DNA from: a phage
Direction: 5' to 3' (one strand)
Length of the DNA stretch: 64,000 nucleotides
Assembly: GCA_032986305.1 (NCBI GenBank)
Contig: GCA_032986305.1_3672.1
The position numbers were made by a program, and so were the translations under genes. Of this stretch, positions 11,272 to 56,096 are shown one piece after another; the stretch's first letter is position 1, and every line of letters begins with the position of its first letter. The notes beneath the pieces were generated by a model. It saw only the letters and a list, made by a program, of their open reading frames with translations, was not told the origin of the DNA and searched no databases.

Positions 11272-12033
11272 AAACTATAACTGCTCATGTAAAATCTATC
11301 TAAACGGGGAAACTCCAGAACGGACAATCCCGTGCTAAACGTAACAGAACTCCTGACCAAGAGGAGTCCTGAAATGAGAAAACAAATTCGTGATTTTGAA
11401 GGTTATGAAATTGACGAGATGGGCAATGTTTATTGCACCCGCTACGAAAATGAAAGAATTATTCATTCGTGGGAAGAGATAAACACAGGTTACCGTCTTG
11501 TTAGGATACGCAAGAACAAAAAGACTGTTTGCCTAAGGGTTCACAGACTTGTTGCTGAAGCGTTCTTACCAAATCCAGACAATTTACCCTATGTTAAGCA
11601 CAAAGGGGACAACAGGAAAGATAACAGTGTATACAACCTTGAGTGGGGAGCTTGCCCAGACAATACGCAAGAAGGATACAACAACAACTGTTATGCTTTT
11701 TACACAAGATGCCACGGTGTGAAAGCCACCAACAAATTAACTGGTGAGGTTTTCCACTTTAAAAGTCTGAGATGTTGTGCTGATGTTTTAGGAGTGGATA
11801 GAAAAAGAATATCTGCTATCCTGAAACGTGGTGCGCCTAATAACTATGATTACGAGTTCTGTTACGAAATGCCTAACGACTAACCGTGATGAATGTAGCG
11901 GTGTAGGGTGTAAGCCGATGACACTCGAAATGGTAGACACACTAAGTGTGAAGATATAGTCTGATCTGCATGGGAACATGCAGCAGCACGTAAAGGTGCG
12001 GGGGTGGACTTGCGAACCACCCTGAACATAATG
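11272..12033 (+). mobile_element. group I intron 2 in nrdD carrying HNH endonuclease ORF
   Basis: 5' part AAUCUAUCUAAACGGGG...CAAUCCCGUGCUAAA and 3' part GAUAUAGUCUGA...GCAUGG...CAUGCAG...AUAAUG strongly resemble T4 td-type group IA2 intron core. Confidence 0.65.
11374..11883 (+). CDS. intron-encoded HNH homing endonuclease
   Basis: HNH_3-type motifs GYRLVRIRK...VHRLVAEAF...HK.G...DN...NLEW; SD AAGAGGAG before ATG. Confidence 0.8.
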   Translation: MRKQIRDFEGYEIDEMGNVYCTRYENERIIHSWEEINTGYRLVRIRKNKKTVCLRVHRLVAEAFLPNPDNLPYVKHKGDNRKDNSVYNLEWGACPDNTQEGYNNNCYAFYTRCHGVKATNKLTGEVFHFKSLRCCADVLGVDRKRISAILKRGAPNNYDYEFCYEMPND

Positions 12034-12996
12034 TGTAGAAGTTTCTTATCGAAATATAGCGACCCTGTAACAGGCGAGGAGAAATACCTTGGCAGATTTA
12101 ACTTAGGCGTTGTTAGCCTTAACCTGCCAATGATTGCGGCAAAAGCCAAGACGGAAGGTGTTGATTTCTTTGCAGTTCTTGACGAATACTTGGATCTTGC
12201 ATACGAGGCTCACCTTGTAAGGGTTAATCGTCTAAAAGGAACAAAGGCAGGGCAGAACCCCATCATGTGGTGTGAAGGCGCTCTTGCTCGCCTGGATCCT
12301 GAAGAGAGTGTTGATAAACTCTTCTATGACGGGTACGCTTCCATCAGTATTGGGTATATTGGTGTGTATGAAACCTGTCAGATTTTGGGTAGAGAGGGTG
12401 ACAAGGCTTTAGCTCTTGGAATCCTTCAGCACATGAGAGATGCTTGTGAGCGATACAAGAAGGAAAGTAGACTAGCGTTTAGCTTGTACGGCACTCCTTC
12501 TGAGAGTCTATGCTATAAAGCTGCAACCTGTCTGGATCGTGAATATCCGGAAGTGTTGAAGCACGAGCATGAATATCTCACCAACAGTTTCCATCAGCCA
12601 GTATGGATAAATAGCTCTCCTTTTGATAAGTGGGAGTATGAGGAAGGTTTTGCTATGATCTCCTCTGGTGGCAACATCGGATACGTAGAAACACCTAACC
12701 TGAAAAACAACCTGGATGCTTTAGAGGCTCTTGTTGACTTCGGGTATAAACATATTATGTACTTCGGTATAAACCAGCCTGTTGACCAATGCTTCAAGTG
12801 CGGTTTCCAGGGAGAATTTAAAGCCTCTCCAAGAGGTTTTATATGCCCTTGTTGTGGAAACCATGAGGAGGGAACGATCAGTGTAATTAGACGTGTGTCT
12901 GGATACCTTTCCAGTCCTAACTCCCGTCCTTACAATAAAGGTAAGCAAGCGGAAGTTATAGAACGGGTTAAGCACTATGGAAGTTGTAGTTGCTGA
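12034..12996 (+). CDS. nrdD: NrdD exon 3 (glycyl radical domain)
   Basis: C-terminal zinc site CFKCG...CPCCG and glycyl-radical motif RRVSGYL. Confidence 0.8.
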   Translation, partial: CRSFLSKYSDPVTGEEKYLGRFNLGVVSLNLPMIAAKAKTEGVDFFAVLDEYLDLAYEAHLVRVNRLKGTKAGQNPIMWCEGALARLDPEESVDKLFYDGYASISIGYIGVYETCQILGREGDKALALGILQHMRDACERYKKESRLAFSLYGTPSESLCYKAATCLDREYPEVLKHEHEYLTNSFHQPVWINSSPFDKWEYEEGFAMISSGGNIGYVETPNLKNNLDALEALVDFGYKHIMYFGINQPVDQCFKCGFQGEFKASPRGFICPCCGNHEEGTISVIRRVSGYLSSPNSRPYNKGKQAEVIERVKHYGSCSC

Positions 12997-13062
12997 TACT
13001 TGACAGAAGCCACAAGGATGTGGCATACTTGGCTAATCTATGAGAACCAAGAGGGATCAAAG

Positions 13063-14019
13063 ATGCCTAGAGGAAAACAACTTACAACTGAAGAATTTAC
13101 AAAAAGAGCTAGAGAAGTACATGGCGATAAATATGACTATTCAAAAACCGTATATAAAACTGCTAAAAGTAAGGTTGTAATTGTATGCCCTGTTCATGGT
13201 GAGTTTACGCAGATCGCTGGACATCATATCCTTGACGGTAGTGGGTGTCCTAAGTGTGGTAGAGTGCCAGTAGGCAATAAGCTTAGAAACGATTCTAGTG
13301 ATATTATCAAAAAATTTGTAAAAATCCACGGTGACACCTATGATTATTCTAAGGTTGAATATGTTAACTATAAAACTCCTGTAAAAATTGTATGCCCTGA
13401 GCACGGAGTGTTCTTGCAATCCCCATCTAACCATTTGAAAGGCCAAGGGTGCCCTGAGTGTAGTAAACTCATTAGCGCAGCAAAAAGGAATAAAGGCCCT
13501 GAATTCATAGAAAGAGCCAAAGAAATCCATGGCGATAAATATGACTACTCTTTTGTAGATTATATGACTTGCGAAGATAAGGTAGAGATAATCTGCAACA
13601 CTTGTGGAAATCACTTCACCCAGACACCTTCTTGCCACCTGTCTGGTCGTGGATGCCCTAAATGTGCCAAAAACGGTTTCTTATCTCACAACTATGGGAA
13701 GCTTTACCTCATGGTTGATAACTTAGAAGCGCCAACACTTATGAAGATTGGTGTGAGCGTCAATGTAGAAGCGAGGAAGGGAAGGATATTAAGAGCATCC
13801 AAGAAGGCTGGTGCAGGTATTTATGATCTCCACATAGTAAAAACATGGGGCGGATCGACTGAAAACATGCTGAGTGTAGAAAAATCTGTGCATGAAGCCT
13901 TCAATAAGTATAAAATAAACTTCTCTAAAGTATTTAGTGGAAGCACTGAATTCTTTCACTACAGACCTGAAGTGTTTAGCATAGTGGAAGCAGTATACAA
14001 AGAGATCTGTGGTAAATGA
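13063..14019 (+). CDS. free-standing homing-endonuclease-like protein (Zn-ribbon repeats plus T5orf172/GIY-YIG-like C-terminal domain)
   Basis: Three repeats of HGDKYDYS...CP.HG.F......H..G.GCP.C, C-terminal KLYLMVD...MKIGVS....R motif. Confidence 0.55.
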   Translation: MPRGKQLTTEEFTKRAREVHGDKYDYSKTVYKTAKSKVVIVCPVHGEFTQIAGHHILDGSGCPKCGRVPVGNKLRNDSSDIIKKFVKIHGDTYDYSKVEYVNYKTPVKIVCPEHGVFLQSPSNHLKGQGCPECSKLISAAKRNKGPEFIERAKEIHGDKYDYSFVDYMTCEDKVEIICNTCGNHFTQTPSCHLSGRGCPKCAKNGFLSHNYGKLYLMVDNLEAPTLMKIGVSVNVEARKGRILRASKKAGAGIYDLHIVKTWGGSTENMLSVEKSVHEAFNKYKINFSKVFSGSTEFFHYRPEVFSIVEAVYKEICGK

Positions 14020-14071
14020 TCGTAGAAAGATACACATGTCTTAAATATGCTATTAACTAAGGAGGTGCAGT

Positions 14072-14188
14072 ATGTCATCGGGTATCTATAAAATCTGCAA
14101 GTGCGGTTGTCATTGTAATCTTCGTTGGTGCAAGGCACTGGACGATTTTATTTGGCATTGCCCTAAATGTGATGCGGAGTATCTATGA
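14072..14188 (+). CDS. small zinc-ribbon protein (38 aa)
   Basis: SD AAGGAGGTG before ATG; CKCGCHC...CPKC; stop overlaps nrdG start (ATGA). Confidence 0.4.
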   Translation: MSSGIYKICKCGCHCNLRWCKALDDFIWHCPKCDAEYL

Positions 14189-14658
14189 ATATTGCCGGAT
14201 ACACAGAAATATCTTACACCGAAGGGCCAGGTATTAGAACTGCCTTATGGGTATCTGGGTGCCCACACGCTTGCCCTGGTTGCTTTAATCAGGCATTTTG
14301 GTCAAAAGATAAGGGGAGAGAGTTTACTGAAGAAGACTTGCAAAAAATCTTGTCAGATTTAGATAACCCGTCTGTGTGCGGTATCTCTCTGCTGGGTGGA
14401 GAACCCTTAGCATACTATAATGAGCCAGATATTATTAGCCTGATGGAGAAAATTAAGGAAAAATTTGGTGACAAGAAAACTATTCTTGTATATACTGGGT
14501 TCACATTTGACCATATCTCTAGTGATGTTCTTAAACTGGCTGATATCATCATTGACGGTAAGTATGTAAAAGATTTACCAACCAAGAAACCGTTCCGAGG
14601 TAGTGATAACCAAAGAATGTTTAAAAAAGTATCAGGCGGTTGGGTTCAGGTAGACTAG
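14185..14658 (+). CDS. nrdG: anaerobic ribonucleotide reductase activating protein NrdG (radical SAM)
   Basis: Radical-SAM cluster motif CPHACPGC near N-terminus, approx 157 aa. Confidence 0.85.
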   Translation: MNIAGYTEISYTEGPGIRTALWVSGCPHACPGCFNQAFWSKDKGREFTEEDLQKILSDLDNPSVCGISLLGGEPLAYYNEPDIISLMEKIKEKFGDKKTILVYTGFTFDHISSDVLKLADIIIDGKYVKDLPTKKPFRGSDNQRMFKKVSGGWVQVD

Positions 14659-14662
14659 TTGT

Positions 14663-14691
14663 TGACAAAGCTTTGTTAAGTTGGTTATAAT
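14663..14691 (+). promoter_or_regulatory. consensus sigma70 promoter TTGACA-17-TATAAT
   Basis: Perfect -35 and -10 hexamers with 17-bp spacer. Confidence 0.55.
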
Positions 14692-14720
14692 TGTCGTAAT
14701 GAAAGCAGAGGAGGTGCCAA

Positions 14721-14834
14721 ATGGCTAAAAAAGCCTTGAAGAAGGCGTACAAGAAAGAGATTGCGCTTGAGCTTAAGAAAAAACACAAGCGTGAAAAGAA
14801 ACATCATGAGGATGAAGAGGGGGTGCAACAGTGA
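14721..14834 (+). CDS. small lysine-rich protein (37 aa)
   Basis: SD GAGGAGGTG before ATG; stop overlaps next GTG start. Confidence 0.4.
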   Translation: MAKKALKKAYKKEIALELKKKHKREKKHHEDEEGVQQ

Positions 14835-15181
14835 CACAAGAACGTATCGATTTGGCTAATAAGTTTGTAGATCTCATTTTGCCACGGTTAGTTACTCAAC
14901 ATGCAGACGCTATTTCTACTAATCTTGATGGCTTACGCCTAATGCTGAATCGCACAGATGACCCTCGTATTCGGGCTGATTTAGAAGCCTCTGCCAACAA
15001 ACTGGAAAAGTTCTTGCAAGTAGATACGCAAGAGGCCTTACACAAGATTATGGTGGAAGGTTTCTCTAAAGAATTTACCATTAAAGAGCTTAAGGAGCTG
15101 ATCCACCAAGAAGAGATGAATATCCGAGTTCAGGCTGTTGCAAGCAGCATGGAAGCGGCTATTGAAAAACTGTTGCAGTAA
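14831..15181 (+). CDS. hypothetical protein
   Basis: GTG start after GAGGGGG. Confidence 0.45.
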   Translation: MTQERIDLANKFVDLILPRLVTQHADAISTNLDGLRLMLNRTDDPRIRADLEASANKLEKFLQVDTQEALHKIMVEGFSKEFTIKELKELIHQEEMNIRVQAVASSMEAAIEKLLQ

Positions 15182-15219
15182 AAGTGCTTGGTACATCTCA
15201 ATCTGAAAGGAGTCCCAAC

Positions 15220-16008
15220 ATGGGTCGAGCTAAAGAAACAAAACGCATGCGTGATGAAGCTAGAGAGGCTCGCAAATCTGATCGCCTGCGTAAGGCTGCT
15301 GAGAAATTTGCTGACGAACGAGAGCACACCGCTCCAGCTCTCCGACCAATGAATAAGAAGCAGCAAAAGTATCTTGATTATCTAGGGTCACGTAAGATTA
15401 TTATTGTAAACGGTGTGTTTGGATCCGGTAAGACATTCATGGCATCTGCATATGCAGGTGATCTTCTGCGTAAGAACGAGATTGATAAGATCATTGTTGC
15501 ACGTCCTTATGTACAGACCGGAAAATCAAGCGGATACAAACCGGGAACGTCAATGCAGAAGCTTTGGCCTTACCTTCGTAGTATGATGGACACTATTTGT
15601 CGTCGTGTTGGCAAAGGTGCTTTTGCCGCAATGCTAGGAGACGGTCAGAACAGCCGTATCGAGATTTGTGAAGTTGAAAGCATTCGTGGTCGTAGTTTCG
15701 ATGAGCGATGCTTTGTCCTGATTGACGAGGCACAGCAAACTAACCCTGAAGAAATGTTGTCAATTATCACAAGGATCTCTGATCAGGCAACCCTTGTAAT
15801 TATGGGCGATAATAGCCAACGTGACATCCCTGGTAAATCTGGCCTTGCATGGGTGACGGATTTCTTTACTCGTCATCCAGATCCTGAGGTTGGAATGATC
15901 AGCTTTGATAGTCCAGACGATGTCGTTCGTTCCGGGTTGGGTCGTCAGATTGCACTCAATCTTATTGAGGATCGTGCAAATCATATTTGGACCCCTGTTT
16001 CCGAGTAA
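15220..16008 (+). CDS. phoH: PhoH-like ATPase
   Basis: Walker A GVFGSGKTF and typical PhoH length/organisation; SD AAAGGAG. Confidence 0.85.
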   Translation: MGRAKETKRMRDEAREARKSDRLRKAAEKFADEREHTAPALRPMNKKQQKYLDYLGSRKIIIVNGVFGSGKTFMASAYAGDLLRKNEIDKIIVARPYVQTGKSSGYKPGTSMQKLWPYLRSMMDTICRRVGKGAFAAMLGDGQNSRIEICEVESIRGRSFDERCFVLIDEAQQTNPEEMLSIITRISDQATLVIMGDNSQRDIPGKSGLAWVTDFFTRHPDPEVGMISFDSPDDVVRSGLGRQIALNLIEDRANHIWTPVSE

Positions 16009-16052
16009 TACAGAAGGGTGGTTATTCCACCCTTAAATATCTAAAACAGTTG

Positions 16053-16081
16053 TTGACAAATAGGCAAGCTTTAGATATTAT
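16053..16081 (+). promoter_or_regulatory. sigma70-type promoter TTGACA-17-TATTAT
   Basis: Consensus -35, 17-bp spacer, near-consensus -10. Confidence 0.5.
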
Positions 16082-16109
16082 TATCGGACAAAACAAGGAG
16101 GAGGACAGT

Positions 16110-16421
16110 ATGGCTACAATACAAGAGAAACTGAATAAAATATACTGCCTGTTTGTCTATAACGGCGAGACAATTTTGGCAAATAAAGGATCCAAGAATG
16201 TGTGGATCAAGGACAGTGGTGGTAATATAATCAACTTAGCGTTGCTACGTGAGCGCCGACACAGATTCTTTATCGAGTCTCGGATTATTGAAAGCAGCAC
16301 CTGCTACAGAACAGGCGATAAAGTAATTGTTGACAATGATACGTGGTATGTGGTAGACTGGCAATCATTGAGTTGTGATGCTTCTGACAATCGTAAGTAT
16401 TCCATAGTGATTGCTAAATAA
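16110..16421 (+). CDS. hypothetical protein
   Basis: SD AAGGAGGAGG before ATG 16110. Confidence 0.45.
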   Translation: MATIQEKLNKIYCLFVYNGETILANKGSKNVWIKDSGGNIINLALLRERRHRFFIESRIIESSTCYRTGDKVIVDNDTWYVVDWQSLSCDASDNRKYSIVIAK

Positions 16422-16481
16422 AGGTAAATGTGAATCAGGTTTAAATAAATAGCTTTCAACTTCCAATATTAAGGATTTCTC

Positions 16482-17531
16482 ATGAATTTAACACCTCGCA
16501 GCACCATGGTACACGGCATGAAAGAAAAACAGAACGGTTTCGAACCTATGAGTAATAAAATGTTTGGTATGCCGGGCGGTATCATGGAAACATACAGCTA
16601 CCCAACACCTGTTGTTGACCACGTTCTTTATATCGACGATTTGGAAGACCTACAGGATCATATGTCTCGTCTGCAGACGATCCGTATGGCTCAGCCGGAA
16701 GAAAGCATTCGGGTAATCATCAATAGCCCTGGGGGTTGCGTGCACATTGCAATGGCTTATCTGCAGGCATTCCGCGAGTCTCAGGCAAGCGTTGTTGCAC
16801 ATGCTGAAGGGATGTGCTGCTCTGCTGGAACAATCCTATGGCTGGGTTGCAAAGAACGCACCGTGGCTCCGGACACAGAGTTTATGTTCCACTACTATCA
16901 AGGCGGCACTTATGGTAACGGTGTGAACATGAATACTCAGGTCAGCTACTGGAAAAAACGTTTCGAACGCCTGATCGAAAAATACTACGGTGGGGTGCTT
17001 ACAGAAGATGAGATCGCATCCATCACAGCTGGTGGCGAAGTGTGGTTGGACGGAGAAGAGCTGGCAGCACGCACTGGAGCTATTATTCTGGATGAAGGCA
17101 ACATACAACGCATCCAGAACGGACAAAAACCGAAAAAGCTTCTGGCAAAAGGTGATGAAGAAGGCGTGTTAGGTGAAGCAGGTCTTCCGGAGATTCACCA
17201 GTGCACATCTTTAGATGAGTTAGTTCATGCTGTTGAATCTGCAAAAGCGGGTGGTTCGAAAGGTGATGTTCACACTGTGTTCCTGAATCTGCAGATGGAG
17301 AGTGGCGAGACCGTCAGAATTGCCCTGGGTGAGATTACTTCAGAAGATCTGCAGAGATTCTCTGTCGTTGAACTTCAGGATATTCTGTCTCAATTGAAGA
17401 CTACTCTGAACGGCGGTGAAGAGGTTAAGGTGAAAGATAAGACTCGCAAGCGTCTGGTGGACAATATTATTAAAACAGCAAAAGAGCTCAATGAAAAAAT
17501 CCTGGGTGCAGGAATTGTCGAAGAAGCTTAA
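16482..17531 (+). CDS. ClpP-family serine protease-like protein with C-terminal extension
   Basis: Motifs IINSPGGCV and GMCCSAGT resembling ClpP INSPGG and active-site serine region. Confidence 0.55.
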   Translation: MNLTPRSTMVHGMKEKQNGFEPMSNKMFGMPGGIMETYSYPTPVVDHVLYIDDLEDLQDHMSRLQTIRMAQPEESIRVIINSPGGCVHIAMAYLQAFRESQASVVAHAEGMCCSAGTILWLGCKERTVAPDTEFMFHYYQGGTYGNGVNMNTQVSYWKKRFERLIEKYYGGVLTEDEIASITAGGEVWLDGEELAARTGAIILDEGNIQRIQNGQKPKKLLAKGDEEGVLGEAGLPEIHQCTSLDELVHAVESAKAGGSKGDVHTVFLNLQMESGETVRIALGEITSEDLQRFSVVELQDILSQLKTTLNGGEEVKVKDKTRKRLVDNIIKTAKELNEKILGAGIVEEA

Positions 17532-17543
17532 ACATTAATTCTA

Positions 17544-17567
17544 AAGCCCTCTTCGGAGGGCTTTTAT
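17544..17567 (+). terminator. rho-independent terminator (UUCG tetraloop)
   Basis: AGCCCTC-TTCG-GAGGGCT followed by TTTATGAT. Confidence 0.55.
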
Positions 17568-17582
17568 GATCTGGAGATTTGC

Positions 17583-18116
17583 ATGACTTGTGCTAGAAAA
17601 CCTGATGAACAACGTAACGCCTACGATGAGTATGTGACACCGGAGTGGTGTGCAGAAGGGCTGTATGACCTTATTCCGTTCCCAGAAGACTGGACCTACT
17701 TAGAGCCTTGCAGGAATAGTGCCTCAGGTGTGTTCTACTCCCGTATGCCGTTAGGATCTGCATGGGGAGAAATCCAAGAAGGTGTTGACTATCTGAATAC
17801 AGAATACAACCATGTTGACTGTATTATCACCAACCCACCATACAGCCTGGCTCGTGAGTTTGTAGACAAGGCGTTGAAAGATGCTGACGTAGTTATTATG
17901 CTTTTGCGTCTTAATTTTCTGGAAAGCAAAACCAGATTCGAATGGTGGCTTGATAATGCACCTACCACTGTGATCACAATATCTAAGCGCCCGTCATTCC
18001 AATCCAATGGTAGAACGGATGGGCAGGCATATGCATATTTTGTATGGGACAAGAAAAACCGTCTAGACTTGCCGCCATTTATGTGGTTGGCACCACCAGA
18101 GGCAGACTTGAAATGA
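17583..18116 (+). CDS. DNA N6-adenine methyltransferase (small, NPPY type)
   Basis: Catalytic motif CIITNPPYS. Confidence 0.55.
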   Translation: MTCARKPDEQRNAYDEYVTPEWCAEGLYDLIPFPEDWTYLEPCRNSASGVFYSRMPLGSAWGEIQEGVDYLNTEYNHVDCIITNPPYSLAREFVDKALKDADVVIMLLRLNFLESKTRFEWWLDNAPTTVITISKRPSFQSNGRTDGQAYAYFVWDKKNRLDLPPFMWLAPPEADLK

Positions 18117-18397
18117 AAATGAGTGCTAAGGACAAGTTGCACCAGTTAGCGCTAAAACGTCCTGTAACGCTCCCTGACGAGCTTAACTCCATTTATGATG
18201 CGATTGTAGGGGAGATACAAAATAAAGCGTTAGCAGGCTTTCTGGGATGCGGATTTTCGATAAATCTACCCTCACATCTCTCAGATTACTTCCCACACAT
18301 TGTTGGGGATTTGAGGGCAGGAGGTCTGCAGGTGGATGTTGTTGGCATCTCTCCGGAGAAAAATAACACAGTTGCCTACTTGACAGTGACCTGGTAG
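18113..18397 (+). CDS. hypothetical protein
   Basis: ATG overlaps upstream stop (ATGA). Confidence 0.4.
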   Translation: MKMSAKDKLHQLALKRPVTLPDELNSIYDAIVGEIQNKALAGFLGCGFSINLPSHLSDYFPHIVGDLRAGGLQVDVVGISPEKNNTVAYLTVTW

Positions 18398-18434
18398 TAG
18401 TGTATTTTGTTTTCAACAAGAGGGGGGGTCATCC

Positions 18435-18674
18435 ATGTATAAGTCATTTTCAATTTACTCAAGACAGGCAAAACACTACACAGAGATTCTGATCACTCAG
18501 AAAAAATCTGTAGAAGGTGAGTGGGAATATCATCATAAAATGTTGCGTCCAGACTGGGTTTTTGATAGACTTATTGCTATGATCCCTCTTGGAGAAGTAT
18601 ACCCTATGACAGGCCATAGGGATGCTTGGGATTTAATTGACTATATAGATTCATTTAAGGAGCCCAGTGTATGA
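18435..18674 (+). CDS. hypothetical protein
   Basis: SD GAGGGGGGG before ATG. Confidence 0.4.
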   Translation: MYKSFSIYSRQAKHYTEILITQKKSVEGEWEYHHKMLRPDWVFDRLIAMIPLGEVYPMTGHRDAWDLIDYIDSFKEPSV

Positions 18675-19069
18675 AGATTGAGATCACTAAAGAAGGTAAG
18701 AAAGTGTCTGGAGACTATGCAACAGTAATTCGAGATTTAATGTTTGAAACCACCAAGTTCGGCACATCTAAAGTTGGTCAAACTGTTAGTGTGCAAGGTA
18801 ATATCGTCTCAGGAGAGAAGATAATCATCGTAATAAAAGGCCAGGACCCTGTAGAAGGGACAGTGGGCCGAGGAGGCTACCTGTGTATCTCTGAAGAGCC
18901 TCGTATGCTAGTTGCTGATAACTCTACAGGTAAAAAGCGGGTATGTAACACGGACGAGGTGATGATTATCTATCCAGTCAACCCAGATGATCCGGCAACA
19001 TGGATTGTGGGAAATGAAATCTTCTCTTTAGAAGAGTTATCCTTCCCAGCTCCGCGCTCTGTTCAGTAA
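18671..19069 (+). CDS. hypothetical protein
   Basis: SD AAGGAG; overlapping stop/start. Confidence 0.4.
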   Translation: MKIEITKEGKKVSGDYATVIRDLMFETTKFGTSKVGQTVSVQGNIVSGEKIIIVIKGQDPVEGTVGRGGYLCISEEPRMLVADNSTGKKRVCNTDEVMIIYPVNPDDPATWIVGNEIFSLEELSFPAPRSVQ

Positions 19070-19108
19070 TAATTTATCTTACCAGGGACGGTAGAAGTAG
19101 GAGGTAGC

Positions 19109-19342: not shown

Positions 19343-19347
19343 CAGGT

Positions 19348-19872: not shown

Positions 19873-19902
19873 TATACAATTTAACCTACAAAGGGAGGGC
19901 TA

Positions 19903-20275: not shown

Positions 20276-20358
20276 GATGCTATCCGGGGTATTGTTACTG
20301 GTAGCCATCTTAGGTGGTGCAGTTCTGATGTATAACTATCTTGAAAAAGGAGACAGCA

Positions 20359-20544: not shown

Positions 20545-20546
20545 CG

Positions 20547-45824: not shown

Positions 45825-45839
45825 TATGTTAACTAATTG

Positions 45840-47431: not shown

Positions 47432-47514
47432 TATGGAATCTCCGATTTTATTTGAACAACATAGAAGGAGACACTATTTTAGCATCCCCTTCTGCAAATT
47501 ACAATAGGTATTTG

Positions 47515-47760: not shown

Positions 47761-47777
47761 CTTAAGGTCTCCTGATA

Positions 47778-48098: not shown

Positions 48099-48462
48099 TC
48101 ATCAGGTCTGCCATAGCGTCACCTACGAAGAGAACAACCACATCGTTGACAGCGTCAGCATCATCTTTATTGACGTTGCTGAATTTAGGACACACCGCAA
48201 TGATCATATAGACACCGTTACCAACCTGAACTGTCCGTGTGGTGCACATCATGGCGGTATTTGTGCCTTCTTTGAAGGCGAAGCCTTGAAGACGCTCCTC
48301 TAAAGTGTTACCGGTAGATTTCAGAAGCGCCAGCTCGTCCAAGGCATAGATGATATCTCCGGAAGTTAGTGTTGCCTTGCCATCAGACACCATAATAACT
48401 CCATCAGCACCGTCAAGCTTAGAGGCTTCAAAGATATCAATATCCCAAATATTTTTCATCAC
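48070..48462 (-). CDS. hypothetical protein
   Basis: 130 aa. Confidence 0.4.
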   Translation of the reverse strand: MMKNIWDIDIFEASKLDGADGVIMVSDGKATLTSGDIIYALDELALLKSTGNTLEERLQGFAFKEGTNTAMMCTTRTVQVGNGVYMIIAVCPKFSNVNKDDADAVNDVVVLFVGDAMADLMNAGEAANED

Positions 48463-48779
48463 GCTTCCTCGTCGTCTAAAGAGTTGAAGATTTCACCGAA
48501 GTATTCTAAGACTTCTAGCTCCCGTGTGGTGCAGAAAACACAGTCACCGTTGTCATCCTCGATAACGGCCTCTTTACCCAGCACATCTACTTCAAGTTTA
48601 TCGTTCAACAGGACAGCCCCTGTGTAAACTTTGTCGGCTGTGCAGTCCCGAAAAGCAGAGTCTTTCTCCAGATAGTCTGGCTTAACCTTGGCTTTAATTC
48701 GTTGGTATTGTTTGGTCATTGCTGTGGTCCCCTTTCGTTTTGATAGGGCCATTATATTAGGCCCCATCACTGTTGTCAA
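48459..48779 (-). CDS. hypothetical protein (tandem paralog of 48783..49037)
   Basis: Shared motifs DCT...Y and DDNGDCVFCT / DDEGDSVWCT. Confidence 0.4.
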   Translation of the reverse strand: MTTVMGPNIMALSKRKGTTAMTKQYQRIKAKVKPDYLEKDSAFRDCTADKVYTGAVLLNDKLEVDVLGKEAVIEDDNGDCVFCTTRELEVLEYFGEIFNSLDDEEA

Positions 48780-48782
48780 GTA

Positions 48783-49037
48783 TTAATGTTCAGGTTTTAC
48801 AAAAACTACTTCATTAACAGTGCACCAGACAGAGTCTCCTTCATCATCTTTAAAGGTAAGGCACTGTGCTGAGTTTTCCAGCTCATCAATCTCTTCTTGT
48901 GATAAAGGGGCCCCTTCTTCCAAAAGGGCTTTTACCAAAGGGTTCTCACAAAACTCTGCTTCATAAATAGTGCCAAGTGTGCAATCTTTAAAAGCTCGGT
49001 CGTTTGCAACGCATTCTGGTTTCAACATGATTTTCAT
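48783..49037 (-). CDS. hypothetical protein (tandem paralog)
   Basis: See 48459..48779. Confidence 0.4.
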   Translation of the reverse strand: MKIMLKPECVANDRAFKDCTLGTIYEAEFCENPLVKALLEEGAPLSQEEIDELENSAQCLTFKDDEGDSVWCTVNEVVFVKPEH

Positions 49038-49113
49038 CTTGGAGGTCTCCTTAATTATTTAACAATCAATACTCTGTTTGTGGGGAGTATCTTACATCTA
49101 ACCTTACTTCTTG

Positions 49114-49512
49114 TCAACGACTATTTTCAATCATCCACCAAGGATCAAGGTAGGTTTGTTGACTTTTTGCCCACTGGCAAACATCTTCGTACATCTGAAC
49201 TTCGTTTTCAGTCAGTTCACGAATAGGCTCATCTATACCCTCATTTTTGTGGTAATCCCAGTCGGCATCGATCTCCCACAACCACGACTTGTTGTCACCA
49301 CGCTTACGCACACAGAAGTCACCGGGACGGCCTGCCAATGCATTTAAGAACTCGTTCTCCGCTCGCTCCTGAAGAATACTAAGGAGCAAAACGTTGGAGC
49401 ATGACCGTAAAATATGCTTCAGCTCACAATCATCAATCTCAACTTCAATACGTTGTTTGACTGTGTGGGTACCTTTTACTAACATCCTACCTCCTCTAAA
49501 CGAACTCTGCAA
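49114..49512 (-). CDS. hypothetical protein
   Basis: 132 aa. Confidence 0.4.
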   Translation of the reverse strand: MQSSFRGGRMLVKGTHTVKQRIEVEIDDCELKHILRSCSNVLLLSILQERAENEFLNALAGRPGDFCVRKRGDNKSWLWEIDADWDYHKNEGIDEPIRELTENEVQMYEDVCQWAKSQQTYLDPWWMIENSR

Positions 49513-49690
49513 GAGTTGTGTTGTTCACTGCACCGCAGTAAATGGAGTATCCCAGCCCATTAGAGTGCAGAAACCACGGCGTGCCGAAATTATCTTTCAC
49601 GTAGACATCGCCGTTGTTTGTAAAGGGCCAATATTCTTCACCAAGGGTAAAATACCTATTCATATCTTCAGCAAGATACTTTACTTTCAT
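49496..49690 (-). CDS. hypothetical protein
   Basis: 64 aa. Confidence 0.35.
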   Translation of the reverse strand: MKVKYLAEDMNRYFTLGEEYWPFTNNGDVYVKDNFGTPWFLHSNGLGYSIYCGAVNNTTLAEFV

Positions 49691-49914
49691 AGGTCCTCTT
49701 CAACAACTACAAACTTGGCAAGCAAAGTGGTTCCGTAGATATGATACTCACCGTTTGCCAGGTGAGAGATATACCAGGCAACCCCTTCCTCGTCTTTAAT
49801 CATTTTGTTTGCACGAGCTTTATCGTAATAAACCTCGTAGGTCTTTCCTTCTTTAAAGAAGGACAGGTCTGTCATCTTTTCTTCTACAAAAGTAGCTTTA
49901 ACCAAAGTTGTCAT
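49687..49914 (-). CDS. hypothetical protein
   Basis: 75 aa. Confidence 0.4.
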   Translation of the reverse strand: MTTLVKATFVEEKMTDLSFFKEGKTYEVYYDKARANKMIKDEEGVAWYISHLANGEYHIYGTTLLAKFVVVEEDL

Positions 49915-50285
49915 TGATCGGTCTCCTTCTTGTTAAGTCTGAATACTGCAATAATAGCATTCCCAAGGTGCAGTGTCAAATCATTTCCAAGATACCACAA
50001 CATTCCACGGTCATCTTTAATGAAAGGGTAACAATCTGGTGCCTTCCAGACATTGTACACTTTCCCAACCTGAAAGAAATCAGGCCCTGTTGGGATTTTG
50101 GTGCCAGGCCACACTTGAGATACCTGAACACACTCCACCTGCATAATAACAGGAATGGTCATGGATGTAAATGTTTTTGTTGGCTCTACTACCATAAAAG
50201 TCTCCTCTTTGCTCAACAACACTTCCATGTGTTGATAGTTTACATTAGTGACAATCACCCCAGTTACGACCACACAAGTATTCAC
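49911..50285 (-). CDS. hypothetical protein
   Basis: 124 aa. Confidence 0.4.
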   Translation of the reverse strand: MNTCVVVTGVIVTNVNYQHMEVLLSKEETFMVVEPTKTFTSMTIPVIMQVECVQVSQVWPGTKIPTGPDFFQVGKVYNVWKAPDCYPFIKDDRGMLWYLGNDLTLHLGNAIIAVFRLNKKETDQ

Positions 50286-50601
50286 CTGTGATCTGGAACG
50301 GGACTCCCATCATTTTAGAAGCTTGCCAGAAGCAATGCACCACCATTTCACCCACAGGGCTCCAGATAAGTTCAAGCTTTCCGTCATCGTTCAGGATAGG
50401 ATCGTACACCGTGTTTCCGTCTCTGTCAACCACCTCGTTTCCGTTTTCATCCTTGCGTGCCTTTTTGTACTTATGACCGTCGAACACATGAAGTTTGGCT
50501 TCCTGCTCTGCCTTAAATGCTTCCAGTTCTTCAATTGTGTCGAAGGTGTACACAGTCTTATACTTAGGTGTGTCAGGGACCTGAAGTTGGTACTCATCCA
50601 A
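50245..50601 (-). CDS. hypothetical protein
   Basis: 118 aa. Confidence 0.4.
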   Translation of the reverse strand: MDEYQLQVPDTPKYKTVYTFDTIEELEAFKAEQEAKLHVFDGHKYKKARKDENGNEVVDRDGNTVYDPILNDDGKLELIWSPVGEMVVHCFWQASKMMGVPFQITGEYLCGRNWGDCH

Positions 50602-50868
50602 TAGTTCAGGTAGGTCGTTAAGCTACCCCGCACCATTACGTGCATAGCCATACGTTTTCACGTAGGATCGGACCATCTCATATTCCTATGATAAGCAACC
50701 ACAGGAATCCTCCCATTTCGACCGCACTTGCTGGTCTACTTCCTTTCGGAATGGCCTCTGAGCGTTCGCTCTTTTGAGCGCTTCGTTGCGGATTACCTTG
50801 CCATAAGGTTTAGGCTTCCCGCAGTTAAAGAGGTTATTCGACATAGATTACTCTATGAAGCCACAATG

Positions 50869-53298
50869 TTATTTATGGTAATAAATAATACGACGAACAC
50901 CTTCATCGTACCACCCACGCTTCACCATTTGGTGGTGCATGAGTATCCCAACTAAGTCACACAGCGATGCACCACCATTCTGTTGGTATGCATTAAGTAA
51001 AGAGTGTTTAGATCGGGTCCAGATGGCATGACCATCAAAAGAGTAGATAAACTTCTTACCCGTTGCTTCCCAGAATTTCTCCAGATCCTCTTTACGCCCC
51101 TTAAGACCAGGGTTGGCATCCCAAAGTGCATCGATTACCCTTTGTCCCAACTCTGGAGAGATGTCCAGCATATCTGCAACTTTATCTTTTTGTGCCCCGT
51201 ACATAACCCCATACGTGATAGGTTTACCGTCGTTACGGGACACCTCTCTGCCTGCTACTTTTGTATATGCCTCAGCATTGTTTTGGTGTGCGTCTCCGTT
51301 ACTTACAACATCGTAATACAGGCCGTTGTCGAACTCAAAGGCACCCCAAGCCCCGATAAGCTGCTCTAAGTTGGACCCGTCGATACCGATCTCAAAGTAT
51401 CCTGGAGGAACACCCCACAAGCTACGCATCTCTTTACCCATAACCACTTTAGGAGAGGGTTTAGGCATGTTTGCACAAATACTGTGTTTCTGTCTGGAAG
51501 TGTTTGTTAATCCAGAGCTTTTAGCAGGAAGCTTATGGTCAATCTTCAAGCGTGGGTGATTAAGAAGACCAGTATCAACCTTATCCTCCTTGATCGGATC
51601 AAGGACCGATCTGCGGTTTCGCAATGATAACCACAAGACGATATCTTTAGCCATCTCTCCGTTCAATTTTTCAAGATTCGGACATAGGTGTCCAAACGTA
51701 TCTTTCAGTTGCGGAGAAGTAATAAGTGCCCTAGCTTTTCTACGTATTTTCCTGAATACTTCCTTTTTAATCCTTTCGGAGTTAGGAAAGCTTCGGAACT
51801 TGTGCACAGTTGTCTGGAACTTAGCATCAGTTTTGTTCCAGAAGTTGATAATTAGGTCACAATACTCTGACTCCAAAAGCTCGTCCATATATGCATATAC
51901 TCGTGCATCAACATCTGCATCAGGTAAAGCTTTCTTCTTGCTGTCTTTAGTTACATCCTTAGTTCTCCACATTGTCGGAAGCCAGCCAGCACTGATCAGG
52001 TATCGCTTAATGTCGTCCTGGTTGCTGATTTTCATAGGTATCTTGCAGTCCGGCATTCGCTTCTGCTGTAGATCACTTATTGCCTGATCCATCAACTCTT
52101 TAGGTAAAGGGTGTGGTGTGGAAGTGCCCTTAATATAGCCTCTCAAGAAATCAGCCATCTTATCGGGGTCTTTGCATCCCATCTCTTCACACCATTTTAT
52201 CCCCATCTTGCTGACATCTCCTGTAGAGGTAAATGCTCTCTTAGGCGGGGCTTTGAACTCTAAAGCGCTCATGTCTACAGGATATCCAAGCTTATCTTTT
52301 AACCATTTCCAACCATTATTAGAGATTGTCCCGTCTTGGTTAAACGGCTTTTCAGGGAACTTGGGCCGCTGAGACATTGACAGCTCTTTTAAAGGCAGTT
52401 GTGGTTCAACACGATCAGCGATTTCTTTCATCCACGCATCGCAACGGTCACGTAAAGCAATAGCTCCATCTATGTCGAAATATACGCCCTGACGGGCCTG
52501 CAGCTCCATCAGGAAGTGCTGCAGCATACCTCGGCGCAATGCGTTCTTCCAGGTGATCTTCTTGAACCCTTTTGGCTTCTCTTTGGCAGGATCGTACATA
52601 AAGTTCTGCATGTCAGATTTGCCGTAGAATACACCTTTTGATTCCGCTACCAGCTCTTTCCAGAGCAACTCCTGGATGATAACGTCCTCGAATACACGAT
52701 CCACATACTTCCACAACGGAAGATCGCGCCAGTCATCAATTTGAACTTTCTGGTTACCAAGGGCGTAGCCCCATGCCATAAGGCCGTGAGGACCAACAGG
52801 CTGCATTTTCTTAGTAACCGGGTTGAATACAGCGTCCGGACAACCTTTTGGTAAAGGGCGATCAGGCCACAAGATTCGGCTCATCGCCAACGTATCAAAC
52901 AGGTTAACCTGGTGGTCGTTGATAGTCCCCATACATTTAGGATCACGGAACATATCAAAATGAATACCGGATAATCTCTCCATCAGCATAAAGTCATAAC
53001 TATAGCAGTTATGGCAGTTCAAAGCTGTTGGTGACCAGTCGGAATTGCCTGTAAGCCAACCTTCCAACTCCGAAAAATCTGCTATGCGAACTTCAAAATC
53101 TTTATAAAGAGCTTTCTTTGCCAGAATAAAGTTCTTAGCCTTCTCTATATCCTCCTCGGAGTAGTGTGTGCGGTCATTTAGAGGGAGGAACAGCATAAAA
53201 CGGTTCTTATTCAGCTCTTTAAACAGGCCGCAGTGATAATAAAGATCTGGGTCTTCCAAAAGCCCGGAGGCCTCAAAATCGAAGCTATACATGCTCAT
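50869..53298 (-). CDS. family A DNA polymerase (T7 gp5-like) with 3'-5' exonuclease domain
   Basis: Exo I FDFEASGL; motif A GIDGSNLEQL (cf. T7 DASGLELR); motif B RNDGKPITYGVMYG; SD AAGGAG. Confidence 0.75.
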   Translation of the reverse strand: MSMYSFDFEASGLLEDPDLYYHCGLFKELNKNRFMLFLPLNDRTHYSEEDIEKAKNFILAKKALYKDFEVRIADFSELEGWLTGNSDWSPTALNCHNCYSYDFMLMERLSGIHFDMFRDPKCMGTINDHQVNLFDTLAMSRILWPDRPLPKGCPDAVFNPVTKKMQPVGPHGLMAWGYALGNQKVQIDDWRDLPLWKYVDRVFEDVIIQELLWKELVAESKGVFYGKSDMQNFMYDPAKEKPKGFKKITWKNALRRGMLQHFLMELQARQGVYFDIDGAIALRDRCDAWMKEIADRVEPQLPLKELSMSQRPKFPEKPFNQDGTISNNGWKWLKDKLGYPVDMSALEFKAPPKRAFTSTGDVSKMGIKWCEEMGCKDPDKMADFLRGYIKGTSTPHPLPKELMDQAISDLQQKRMPDCKIPMKISNQDDIKRYLISAGWLPTMWRTKDVTKDSKKKALPDADVDARVYAYMDELLESEYCDLIINFWNKTDAKFQTTVHKFRSFPNSERIKKEVFRKIRRKARALITSPQLKDTFGHLCPNLEKLNGEMAKDIVLWLSLRNRRSVLDPIKEDKVDTGLLNHPRLKIDHKLPAKSSGLTNTSRQKHSICANMPKPSPKVVMGKEMRSLWGVPPGYFEIGIDGSNLEQLIGAWGAFEFDNGLYYDVVSNGDAHQNNAEAYTKVAGREVSRNDGKPITYGVMYGAQKDKVADMLDISPELGQRVIDALWDANPGLKGRKEDLEKFWEATGKKFIYSFDGHAIWTRSKHSLLNAYQQNGGASLCDLVGILMHHQMVKRGWYDEGVRRIIYYHK

Positions 53299-53356
53299 AA
53301 AGTGTTCTCCTTAAAGGGGAGGCGGTTGTACTACCCCTCCCACTCTTGGTTAAACA

Positions 53357-55435
53357 TTAAAAAGGCGTTTCATCATCCTCAAAACCAGGGACAGGGTCAG
53401 AGGACGGATCATCGTACTGGAGGTCTTCCTGCGTGTCAACAGGCTTAACAGTAGGAGTTACAACCTTATCAGCCACAACCTTGCCCATAGGTGTTTCTAC
53501 AACTGCATGCTCCTGATCCTCAAACATAGCCTGAGGTCTCCAAACAACCTCCCCACCTTCTCCATCTGTAAACATTTGCATTTCTTTGTCCCAGTACCAA
53601 TTACTGGCATCATGGAACTTACCTGTATGTGGGTCCATAACCAAAGTGTCTGCAATACCCAATGTTTTTGCTGGGCGGTTTTTAAGACCTACTAAACGGA
53701 CACGCCCACGAGAACGATCCACCATTTCTTCGGCCTCAACACCTATGACTACCCAACTCAACTGTTCAAGCCCAGCCGATCCTCGCAAATTCTCTTTTCG
53801 CACAGGATACCAGAAAGGTAATGGGTTACCATCCTTGTCCTTAGGAGGCACAATCTCTGTACGTTTGAGGTGAGCGATCACCAAGATAAACACGTTAAAC
53901 TGCTTACAAAACGCAGCCAGCTGAGTCATAGCCATGTCCAGTTCTTTTCGCTCATCTTTAACATTAAGCCCTGAAATTACCATAGACAGGTGATCCAGCA
54001 CAATATAGCGACAATGATACAGGCAGACCATTTGCTTAAGCTTGGTAATCAACTCGTCCACTGGAATAGACCCGAAATGTTTGAACACTTTGATTTTTCC
54101 AGCTTTTGCCCATGATTGGTGAATCTCTGCGTGTTCTTGATCAGTTAAAAACTGGCTAGGATCTTCAACAAACTCTTTAACATCAAACCCTAGCTGGTTT
54201 GCATACAAGGAGTTAATTGCTTCCTCTGGGTCCTCCTCAAGATGGATCATGCATAGACGATCATCCTCTTCATAGTCATCGGCCTTCGGGCATGTCGGGT
54301 CCATCAAGTATCTTGCAATACAATGTTCCAGTTTTTTAGCTACAGTTGTTTTACCGCCCCCTGATGGCCCTGTAAGCATTACGAGTGTCCCTTTGTGCAA
54401 GCCTTTTAGCATTTTTTGCAGTTTTGGAAACTCTGCGCTGATATCTACCCCGTTGGAAGTCTTTTTCCGCAAAGATTCGATAGAGAAGTCTTCTAAATCC
54501 GACACAGCATCCGGCACATACTTAACAGGATGCCGGAACATGTTTACAATATCTTCCAGCTTTTTAGCCTTCAGCATGTCACGGATATCTTTTACACCAT
54601 CAGGGTCGTTTACCTCGCCAGGATATTCCACGTGGTAAACGTTGTCAGCCATCAAAAATGCTGCGATATTATGTGTGGCTTCAACACCTTTGATAACGTG
54701 TTTTTGCTTCTCTACCTCGTTAGCTGCATCGTTGTCCATTGCAAGGACCACTGTTCCGTAGCTACGGATAAATTTCTCATTGTTTGCAAAAGTGTCTACT
54801 GCGTTTGCACATCCACAGTTAATTCCAACAAAAGGCAGGCAGGGTTTTCCTGCCAGATCACCCCCGTTGATAACTGCATCGATCCCGTCCTGAACCTCTT
54901 TAGCCCACTGTTTCACCTTTGCCGGGGCTTTAGCGTTGGTGAGAATCCCTTTTACTTGTATCTGATATGCAGCCTGCCATGCTGCAATAACATCACCTTC
55001 CCCCTCACAAACGTTAATCTGCTTACGGTTGTTGGAAGATGCACACAGCTTTTGACCAAACATCTGGGAGTTAGCCTTTACGATGCCTACTACAGACCAG
55101 TGTCCTTTTTGCTCTTTCGGCTTAGACCAATCACGCTTTTTGAAACCGGACAGATTCCCGTATCGGTCGTAATATGGGAAATATGTTGCAGTAACTGTCA
55201 CACCGTCTTCTTGGGATAATGCTGATCGCACACCAAAATATTGTGCAGCCATCAGACCGATATTCTGTTGTGGAACAGGGACAATTTTAGTATTTTCTAA
55301 AACAGTCTCTACAGTTTCAACCTCTTTTTCATCACGATAGTCTCGTTTCATACTGCCCCCACTTTTGTATCTTGTTGCAACCGGGTTAGGTTCTCCATAG
55401 CGGCTATATGCAGAGGATATAAACTTATTCCCCAT
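53357..55435 (-). CDS. primase-helicase (TOPRIM primase plus DnaB-like helicase, T7 gp4-like)
   Basis: TOPRIM CEGEGD and AMDNDAAN; Walker A LTGPSGGGKTT; C-terminus ...FEDDETPF; SD GAGGAG before ATG 55435. Confidence 0.8.
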   Translation of the reverse strand: MGNKFISSAYSRYGEPNPVATRYKSGGSMKRDYRDEKEVETVETVLENTKIVPVPQQNIGLMAAQYFGVRSALSQEDGVTVTATYFPYYDRYGNLSGFKKRDWSKPKEQKGHWSVVGIVKANSQMFGQKLCASSNNRKQINVCEGEGDVIAAWQAAYQIQVKGILTNAKAPAKVKQWAKEVQDGIDAVINGGDLAGKPCLPFVGINCGCANAVDTFANNEKFIRSYGTVVLAMDNDAANEVEKQKHVIKGVEATHNIAAFLMADNVYHVEYPGEVNDPDGVKDIRDMLKAKKLEDIVNMFRHPVKYVPDAVSDLEDFSIESLRKKTSNGVDISAEFPKLQKMLKGLHKGTLVMLTGPSGGGKTTVAKKLEHCIARYLMDPTCPKADDYEEDDRLCMIHLEEDPEEAINSLYANQLGFDVKEFVEDPSQFLTDQEHAEIHQSWAKAGKIKVFKHFGSIPVDELITKLKQMVCLYHCRYIVLDHLSMVISGLNVKDERKELDMAMTQLAAFCKQFNVFILVIAHLKRTEIVPPKDKDGNPLPFWYPVRKENLRGSAGLEQLSWVVIGVEAEEMVDRSRGRVRLVGLKNRPAKTLGIADTLVMDPHTGKFHDASNWYWDKEMQMFTDGEGGEVVWRPQAMFEDQEHAVVETPMGKVVADKVVTPTVKPVDTQEDLQYDDPSSDPVPGFEDDETPF

Positions 55436-56096
55436 CTTTAAACTCCTCAATCTCTTTCATCACTCTATCTCTTACAGCTTTTGCTTCTTCTAAAGTATTG
55501 TAAGTGCCATAGCTCTTTCTCTTTTTGCCGCTTTGCACTCTAACTCTCCACCTTCCAGAGCTCGGCACATAGAACACCCCTGTTACACCGCTAGTGTTTC
55601 TAACATCCAAATCTTGCGGGACGAATTTTCCCTTCTCCCATAACTTTCTGCATGCAATTGCATCTTCTTTTGTCTTAAAACACCCTAAGTATATGTCTCC
55701 AACAGATGCAATCCATCTTTTTATACCTCTAGGGTAGCGTACACCTCGACACCCTGAGGTATTGTTAATGCTCAGTTTGTCACTGTAGATCATGTCTCGT
55801 GCATTATCGCCCTGTGTACCTAGGACTAAGTTCTCTACCCTATCATCGCCTGCTATGTCGTTCTTGTGCCGCACAACAAGTCCTTCTGGTATCTCCCCGT
55901 AATGCATCTCCCAAACTATTCTATGCCTACGAACACTCCCAACACCTGACACATATATCACTCTATAGCCATTTTTATCTGTACCTGTGGCCTCCTCACC
56001 TGCGTAATGTATAACCCTGCCCCTTCCGGCTTTTGCAGTGTACGCCCAGAACAGTTTGCCGTCACTGTAGGTGAAATACTTGCTCCAGTCAACCAT
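55425..56096 (-). CDS. HNH homing endonuclease with two AP2 DNA-binding domains (free-standing)
   Basis: HNH_3 motif HRIVWEMHYGEIP...RHKN...DDRVENL; AP2-like SGCRGVRY... and SGVTGVFY... repeats. Confidence 0.75.
   Translation of the reverse strand: MVDWSKYFTYSDGKLFWAYTAKAGRGRVIHYAGEEATGTDKNGYRVIYVSGVGSVRRHRIVWEMHYGEIPEGLVVRHKNDIAGDDRVENLVLGTQGDNARDMIYSDKLSINNTSGCRGVRYPRGIKRWIASVGDIYLGCFKTKEDAIACRKLWEKGKFVPQDLDVRNTSGVTGVFYVPSSGRWRVRVQSGKKRKSYGTYNTLEEAKAVRDRVMKEIEEFKDGE

Follow-up and report, generated by a model that had tools for sequence, protein, structure and literature searches.

The three putative endonuclease genes considered here lie within an intron of nrdD, between nrdD and nrdG, and directly upstream of the primase-helicase gene in a 64,000-nucleotide (nt) stretch of phage DNA (NCBI GenBank assembly GCA_032986305.1, contig GCA_032986305.1_3672.1; the whole stretch is called the window). 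For the intron-encoded gene the closest described enzymes are I-HmuI and I-HmuII, HNH nicking enzymes encoded in the DNA polymerase introns of the Bacillus phages SPO1 and SP82. Phage T4 has a group I intron in its own nrdD (sunY) gene, carrying the GIY-YIG enzyme I-TevII, and also has free-standing endonuclease genes in its nrd spacers, for example mobE between nrdA and nrdB, to which the nrdD–nrdG gene of the window may be likened. In the passages of Barth, Dunham and Seed 2023 (PMC10448857) drawn on here, both the T5orf172 genes that have CapR/DUF723 zinc-finger repeats and the HNH-AP2 genes are classed as homing endonuclease genes, clustering around the genes for ribonucleotide reductase and the replisome and lying at boundaries of genetic exchange; ribonucleotide reductase was present in 33% of the T5orf172 neighbourhoods surveyed, and the HNH-AP2 family of phages and cyanobacteria is cited as the source of plant AP2 domains. 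The paper on the BASEL collection describes larger phage genomes as heavily 'infested' by homing endonuclease genes (PMC8594841), while in the rV5 genome paper introns were reported in the terminase only (PMC3606486). The three elements of the window are already known, both in kind and as near-identical annotated copies, and the pattern that they form has been published (PMC10448857). In EmilHeitz, HeinrichReichert and Phage 203 the HNH-AP2 gene bears the annotation 'putative homing endonuclease', and genes near-identical to the window endonucleases carry it in JEP1, SYGMH1 and WalterGehring as well.

Sequence similarity places the source of the window in the rV5 group, as an rV5-like coliphage of the genus Vequintavirus: the nrdD and primase regions match Vequintavirus coliphages at 90–98% identity (megablast, 50,697 phage records) and the entire 64 kb are colinear with Escherichia phage AlexBoehm (MZ501048) at 92–97% identity. 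Over that length the comparison with AlexBoehm gives exactly three insertions of more than 500 bp, namely intron 2 of nrdD, a block carrying the T5orf172 gene and the HNH-AP2 gene (770, 1032 and 672 bases in the window versus 9, 20 and 10 in AlexBoehm). These very probably represent homing endonuclease genes, each of a different known architecture and each in or beside a highly conserved DNA-metabolism gene. All three have the domain content of such genes, exact points of insertion at which expression signals have been kept, and a patchy, independent distribution among relatives, and two of them (intron 2 and the HNH-AP2 gene) have recoded flanks. The junctions in the window and its relatives were read base by base, and the states of the introns and of the intergenic region, together with the exon patches, were compared over 14 sequences; a collection of related loci from IMG/VR by way of NrdG gave two loci, and the comparison set consisted of individual GenBank records. 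No further paralogues of the three endonucleases were found by phmmer among the 506 six-frame open reading frames (ORFs) of at least 50 amino acids (aa) in the window.

The initial annotation had placed an HNH endonuclease gene inside intron 2 of nrdD, and both could be located (Table 1), the limits of the intron being set by comparison with phiWec189 and AlexBoehm, whose nrdD alleles have no intron there. Removal of the two introns from nrdD restores a single continuous conserved reading frame: the predicted spliced NrdD of 707 aa is identical at 688 of 707 positions, without gaps, to that of phiWec189, in which nrdD is an uninterrupted gene of 707 codons. Both introns are of phase 0 and end in G, and each has a canonical P1 with a U-G pair (AACGGU/GCCGUU for intron 1, with the U-G pair at the splice site, and CAUGGGU/GCUCAUG for intron 2); the last codon of exon 1, GGT, supplies the U of the 5′ splice site. 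Cys388, which directly follows intron 2, is the residue that we take to be the thiyl-radical cysteine by reference to Cys384 of Escherichia coli NrdD. Phage phi92 has an nrdD intron at the same position as intron 2. The T4 intron resembles intron 2 in its 3′ core (79% identity over 118 nt) but carries a GIY-YIG enzyme where intron 2 carries an HNH enzyme. The site of the T4 intron was considered as that of the window introns and rejected, as it lies further upstream in nrdD, approximately 10 codons before the intron 1 site and approximately 110 before the intron 2 site.

Intron 2 of the window equals an ORF-less 251-nt ribozyme plus a 511-nt insertion, the ribozyme parts being near-identical. 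The insertion is placed after the P5/P6 sequences and before J6/7-P7, and as judged from this alignment the HNH ORF is encoded in a peripheral loop of an intron of which ORF-less versions exist. The ORF is preceded by AGGAG 7 nt 5′ of its ATG and runs by its final 17 nt into the conserved J6/7-P7 core of the ribozyme. Because the near-identical ORF-less homologues score above the gathering threshold of 50 bits with the Rfam model RF00028 (70.5 bits for the 251-nt form in an IMG/VR contig and 70.6 bits for the 279-nt form in phi92), intron 2 can be assigned to group I by homology. The predicted product of the ORF aligns end to end with I-HmuI (PDB 1u3e, E-value 1.8e-7), including the HNH motif and a C-terminal helix-turn-helix-like domain; the motif is in register (VKHKGDNRKDN...NLEW in the window on VDHKDGNKDNN...NLRW in 1u3e), with the catalytic His and metal-binding Asn present, and the protein matches PHROG 59 'HNH endonuclease' (E-value 2.8e-32). 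The two enzymes are also of similar size (169 aa in the window, 174 aa for I-HmuI) and the gene of each lies within a group I intron that interrupts an essential gene of DNA metabolism in a lytic phage, but they differ in the host gene (nrdD rather than DNA polymerase) and in the phage lineage, and their sequence identity is low.

At the start of exon 3, immediately behind intron 2, there is a recoded patch which is present in all six alleles with the intron and in none of the eight without it (examples are CGG to AGA and AGC to TCG). Over the 45 nt of exon upstream of intron 2 there is no linkage to presence of the intron among the 14 alleles. This linkage of intron 2 to a diverged 3′ exon resembles the exclusion of flanking markers that Goodrich-Blair and Shub reportedly described in 1996 for SPO1 and SP82. 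Alleles with intron 1 have GGT at the splice site versus GGG in intron-less alleles, and show a few synonymous changes at the opening of exon 2.

The second gene had been described as a T5orf172/zinc-ribbon-repeat gene between nrdD and nrdG, and its ORF does lie between the nrdD stop (12996) and the start of nrdG (14185). The three zinc-ribbon repeats of its predicted product are of about 65 aa each with an invariant CxxH...CxxC, and Pfam recognizes T5orf172 (26.4 bits, cut-off 20), MUG113 (28.3, cut-off 22.3), DUF723 (39.3, cut-off 20.9) and DUF4379 (37.4, cut-off 24.5) in the protein, which also matches PHROG 681 'endonuclease' (E-value 1.3e-67). The best structural matches of the T5orf172 model are GIY-YIG structures, and the conserved Tyr, Arg and Glu positions of this type of fold are kept in the window domain. 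With the ICP1-type T5orf172 genes, as presented in the passages cited above, the window gene shares its architecture (N-terminal zinc-finger repeats and C-terminal T5orf172), a ribonucleotide reductase neighbourhood and the existence of modular alleles with swapped DNA-binding regions on a shared nuclease domain, although the T5orf172-rich lineages quoted there do not include Vequintavirus (PMC10448857). The start at ATG 13063 is more plausible than TTG 13000 (the mechanical ORF) or ATG 13018 (the phiWec189 annotation), because its ribosome-binding site (GAGGG, 8-nt spacing) is the better one and because it falls within the inserted block, so the start originally proposed can be retained. The block itself begins right behind the −10 element of a promoter-like site that directly follows the nrdD stop and is also found in empty-site phages, and it ends just ahead of the ribosome-binding site of a conserved 38-aa ORF. 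In Shigella phage CM1 the corresponding gene stops within the T5orf172 domain, at 269 aa, and on this account is probably a decaying copy. The 38-aa Cys-rich ORF (MSSGIYKICKCGCHCNLRWCKALDDFIWHCPKCDAEYL) has its own ribosome-binding site, occurs in relatives with and without the endonuclease gene and is oddly annotated in some records.

The protein encoded by the third gene scores 61.7 bits with Pfam HNH_3 (cut-off 24.8) and 37.6 bits with Pfam AP2 (cut-off 33.3), and also matches PHROG 99 (E-value 6.5e-52). It resembles the HNH-AP2 family in having an N-terminal HNH and a C-terminal AP2 domain and in being free-standing beside replisome genes, and differs from it in having two AP2-like stretches, the second at residues ~112–153. 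As the IPA-HNH genes of ICP1 are defined, in the passages cited, as too divergent for Pfam HNH_3 (PMC10448857), the strong match to this model suggests that the window protein belongs to the canonical HNH-AP2 group and not to IPA-HNH. Four gene-less genomes have AAGGAG-CAGAATTA-ATG at the junction, where the ATG is that of the primase at a spacing of 8 nt, and their methyltransferase gene overlaps by its stop with the start of the primase. In the window and three other HNH-AP2 genomes the same AAGGAG precedes the endonuclease ATG, with which the methyltransferase stop now overlaps (ATGGTTGA). The end of the endonuclease gene, ...GAGGAGTTTAAAGATGGGGAATAA, brings in a replacement ribosome-binding site, and its final 11 nt overlap with the ATG of the primase (endonuclease stop 55425–55427, primase ATG 55435). 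Since the inserted gene takes the old ribosome-binding site, supplies a new one and overlaps both neighbours, the translational coupling of the operon is kept. The claim that the ribosome-binding site of the primase-helicase lies within the coding sequence of an HNH-AP2 gene directly upstream thus proved correct (GAGGAG in Table 1).

The HNH-AP2 gene is likewise linked to a diverged flank. The first ~85 nt of the primase gene are only 70–76% identical to those of the four gene-less genomes, versus 92–100% in the surrounding sequence, and are 92–100% identical to those of the three other genomes that carry the gene; this primase 5′ patch is thus found in four of four genomes with HNH-AP2 (the window included) and in none of the four compared genomes without it. 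Escherichia phage V18 (KY683736; the site corresponds to 55433–56100 of the window) has no HNH-AP2 gene but keeps the primase 5′ flank that is otherwise confined to genomes with the gene. The V18 junction, AAGGAGA followed directly by GGGGAATAAG, has removed the primase ATG, and the primase is annotated as shorter; either the endonuclease gene was lost imprecisely or the assembly is wrong at this point. In phages navn and JES2013 a further gene for a 'putative HNH endonuclease' lies between the primase-helicase and DNA polymerase genes; the window has none there, and this is therefore another variable endonuclease site in the replisome operon.

That the three might be conserved syntenic core genes of all relatives was tested and does not hold, as all three are patchy. 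The HNH-AP2 gene was found at this site in four complete genomes among 121 matching Vequintavirus records and in one 1.4-kb fragment, and was not found elsewhere at the DNA level in the phage record search. The T5orf172 block of the window occurs, at 99.9% identity, in phiWec189 as the sole phage record, and the same allele is present in one Logan contig; about 28 Vequintaviruses carry diverged alleles at the same locus, with partial matches of 72–80% identity, and many relatives have the empty site. Intron 2 with its ORF is present in 29 records at a length coverage of at least 80% and lacking from many close relatives (in the 14-sequence set, from phiWec189, AlexBoehm and six others), while intron 1 has a 257-nt form in 14 records and a variant form in 29, and is absent from phiWec189, SYGMH1 and A142. 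Over the 14 sequences three features vary in many combinations, namely the length of intron 1 (0, 257 or 797 nt), that of intron 2 (0, 251 or 762 nt) and the distance between the nrdD stop and the nrdG ATG (176, 1168, 1188, 1191, 1222, 1230 or 1410 nt, with the empty 176 nt in 6/14); the two nrdD introns and the nrdD–nrdG gene assort independently. The full combination seen in the nrdD region of the window is in no phage record, the best coverage of 9800–14700 being 88%.

The window is also a mosaic around these elements. It is 99–100% identical to phage navn over ~9800–12100 and 100% identical to phiWec189 over ~12900–14600, with lower identity between, and the end of its exon 1 is of the intron-less phiWec189 type despite the presence of intron 1. 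Identity profiles place recombination breakpoints at or near the three elements, which fits the remark in the initial annotation that these are likely recombination hotspots and agrees with the published placing of such genes where genetic exchange has its boundaries (PMC10448857). Its proposal that the placement of the three genes is the insertion pattern of selfish endonucleases is supported by the precise sites, the patchy distribution and the preserved expression signals of the neighbouring genes, and the comparison with insertion-less relatives that it called for reveals precise empty sites in the AlexBoehm and phiWec189 alleles.

By the mechanism that we propose, each enzyme would, in a mixed infection, nick or cut the allele that does not have its gene, at or near the point of insertion; repair from the endonuclease-bearing genome would then carry the gene, and some of the sequence beside it, over into the genome that was cut, and the bearer would be protected by its interrupted site, in the case of the intron, or by recoded flanking sequence. 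The nuclease activity, the cleavage sites and the homing of the three enzymes are in this sense predicted from what is observed at the loci.

Some of the observations weigh against this interpretation. With RF00028 intron 1 scores only 29.2 bits (E-value 4.9e-5) in a permissive local search, which is below the gathering score, and intron 2 of the window 35.3 bits over its 3′ part only. The intron 2 HNH protein is below the Pfam cut-off for HNH_3 (19.8 bits, cut-off 24.8), the Pfam I-HmuI NUMOD-like match being below cut-off too (20 bits), and the YIG motif of the T5orf172 domain reads KIG. Apart from a few substitutions in the last ~45 nt of nrdD, no flanking patch was found that only the bearers of the window's T5orf172 allele have. 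A recoded nrdD patch over GNHEEGT..ISVIRR was considered as a target or immunity mark of this allele and was ruled out, as it is also present in four empty-site phages, and the linkage is contradicted as well by the Logan contig, which has the same T5orf172 allele and is missing the patch.

It might be argued that the three genes descend from homing endonuclease genes but no longer home, being either inactive remnants or domesticated genes (used for instance to exclude co-infecting phages or to attack satellites) that are kept by linkage to essential genes. Degenerate copies do exist among the relatives, such as that of CM1, V18 has lost the HNH-AP2 gene and retains the linked flank, and T5orf172 nucleases, like their DNA-binding domains, are documented in the passages drawn on to have been domesticated in the ICP1-PLE system (PMC10448857). 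We nevertheless consider this unlikely, as all three ORFs are full length with intact catalytic-type motifs, and as the elements are 97.7–100% identical between phages whose flanks differ more, which indicates recent transfer; moreover, exclusion of flanking markers is a known behaviour of such enzymes, so the idea is in part no rival to homing. The loss in V18 could also be taken to mean that the presence–absence pattern reflects repeated deletion of ancestral accessory genes instead of insertion by homing. This seems very improbable given that the empty sites are uniform and functional (AAGGAG-N8-ATG in four genomes, the 176-nt spacer in six), whereas the sole clear deletion, that of V18 itself, is imprecise and takes away the primase ATG. 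The intron-less nrdD alleles are in addition seamless in frame, several unrelated or diverged alleles occupy the nrdD–nrdG site, and the elements are again more alike between genomes than are their flanks.

A different question arises for the nrdD–nrdG protein alone, which could be a CapR-like sequence-specific DNA-binding regulator of nrdG or the nrd operon with no nuclease function, since its N-terminal two-thirds are zinc-ribbon repeats of the CapR/DUF723/DUF4379 type, its gene directly follows the promoter-like site and CapR, according to the passages cited, evolved from such domains (PMC10448857). CapR-type regulators, however, do not have a T5orf172 domain, whereas here a complete T5orf172/GIY-YIG domain with the conserved Arg and Glu positions follows the repeats. 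The same repeats are elsewhere fused to other nuclease domains (for example PF04480, of Vsr-like fold) and most relatives do without the gene, so we give the regulator very little credence and retain the endonuclease as the preferred identification.

Table 1. Features of the nrdD–nrdG and primase-helicase regions, in window coordinates.
Feature	Position	Strand	Remarks
nrdD exon 1	9854–10714	+	ATP-cone and N-terminal part of NrdD; Pfam NRDD 142.6 bits, ATP-cone; boundary from phiWec189 alignment
nrdD intron 1	10715–10971	+	257-nt probable group I intron, no ORF; between codons 287 (Gly) and 288 (Gln)
nrdD exon 2	10972–11271	+	100 codons; colinear with phiWec189 NrdD; Pfam NRDD
nrdD intron 2	11272–12033	+	762-nt group I intron; between codons 387 (Gly) and 388 (Cys), motif SMG/CRSF
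HNH endonuclease gene, I-HmuI-like	11374–11883	+	169 aa, in nrdD intron 2; putative activity
nrdD exon 3	12034–12996	+	Glycyl-radical domain and C-terminal zinc ribbon; Pfam NRDD 282.6 bits, Gly_radical 81.6 bits
Recoded patch linked to intron 2	12036–12070	+	Start of exon 3; ~13 substitutions in 35 nt, mostly synonymous, across CRSFLSKY
Promoter-like site	13000–13029	+	TTGACA, 18 nt, TG-CATACT; 10/12 consensus matches; consensus match only
T5orf172-carrying inserted block	13028–14059	+	1032 nt replacing 20 nt of the empty nrdD–nrdG spacer of AlexBoehm
Free-standing putative endonuclease gene	13063–14019	+	318 aa; three zinc-ribbon repeats and C-terminal T5orf172/GIY-YIG domain
38-aa Cys-rich ORF	14072–14188	+	Upstream of and overlapping nrdG; resident operon, outside mobile block; annotated bas56_0179
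nrdG (NrdD activase)	14185–14658	+	Pfam Fer4_12 146.2 bits, Radical_SAM
Primase-helicase gene	53357–55435	−	ATG 55435; Pfam DnaB_C, AAA_25; start agrees with annotated homologues
Diverged primase patch linked to HNH-AP2 gene	55350–55432	−	First ~28 codons of primase
Free-standing HNH-AP2 putative endonuclease gene	55425–56096	−	223 aa
Primase-helicase ribosome-binding site	55443–55448	−	GAGGAG, inside HNH-AP2 coding sequence
Dcm-like cytosine methyltransferase gene	56089–56880	−	Upstream of HNH-AP2 gene; by annotation of bas49_0074, bas56_0071

The value of these results is practical more than conceptual and current understanding is not overturned by them. They explain why nrdD appears as three ORFs and give exact splice junctions and insertion points for annotation, they account for a phage mosaic that resembles navn to one side of nrdD and phiWec189 to the other, and they show why whole-genome alignments of Vequintaviruses are unreliable around the nrd and replisome genes. 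Filled and empty alleles with flanks that are 92–100% identical also offer a ready system in which homing and marker exclusion by three families of endonuclease could be measured within a single E. coli phage.

The 3′ end of nrdD is variable beyond what is described above. A patch of ~95–130 nt in the zinc-ribbon region (12770–12900, + strand) has 58–63% identity to relatives that are otherwise 99–100% identical, and brings nine amino acid changes with the Cys ligands retained. No match above 81% to this patch was found among the 50,697 phage records; the 5,426 E. coli genomes searched gave no match, and the IMG/VR and JGI metagenomes no exact 33-mer. Three genomes that have the same T5orf172 allele have three different versions of the nrdD zinc-ribbon segment. 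For other alleles of the spacer gene there is linkage: a recoded patch over GYLSSPNSRPYNTGK is present in all four phages whose allele is the 1168, 1222 or 1230-nt one and is missing from the 10 others; the linkage of an allele class different from that of the window to recoding of the GYLSSPNSRPYN codons is perfect. It is conceivable, though we regard it as rather doubtful, that the nrdD 3′ end (zinc ribbon and glycyl-radical loop) is the cleavage target of the spacer T5orf172 family and that repeated cutting, repair and escape have made it a hypervariable mosaic. If so, selfish nucleases would be driving amino acid diversification in the zinc ribbon of a catalytic enzyme.

The initial annotation missed that intron 1 of nrdD, a probable group I intron, and a group I intron in the DNA polymerase gene (50649–50884, − strand; RF00028 64.7 bits, E-value 4e-14) are both ORF-less, and relatives have endonuclease genes within both. 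At gathering thresholds over the whole window Rfam missed both nrdD introns and detected the DNA polymerase intron alone. In JEP1, slur16 and MaxBurger intron 1 is 797 nt long with an ORF of 177–186 aa, which in slur16 and MaxBurger bears the annotation of an HNH or putative homing endonuclease, so the same intron exists with and without an endonuclease gene. The same DNA polymerase intron in AlexBoehm holds a 507-nt homing endonuclease gene (bas56_0074), with 643 nt where the window has 69 nt.

Of the neighbouring genes, the protein of the Dcm-like methyltransferase gene gave no Pfam match. A PhoH-like gene contains, at 15511–15611 (+ strand), a patch of 79% identity amid an alignment of 95–100% with a Logan contig. 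Finally, more than 20 UNVERIFIED GenBank records (MG0656xx) labelled as Campylobacter jejuni phages, such as 'Campylobacter phage A142', are Vequintaviruses approximately 95% identical to the window phage, and their Campylobacter host labels are probably wrong or due to contamination.

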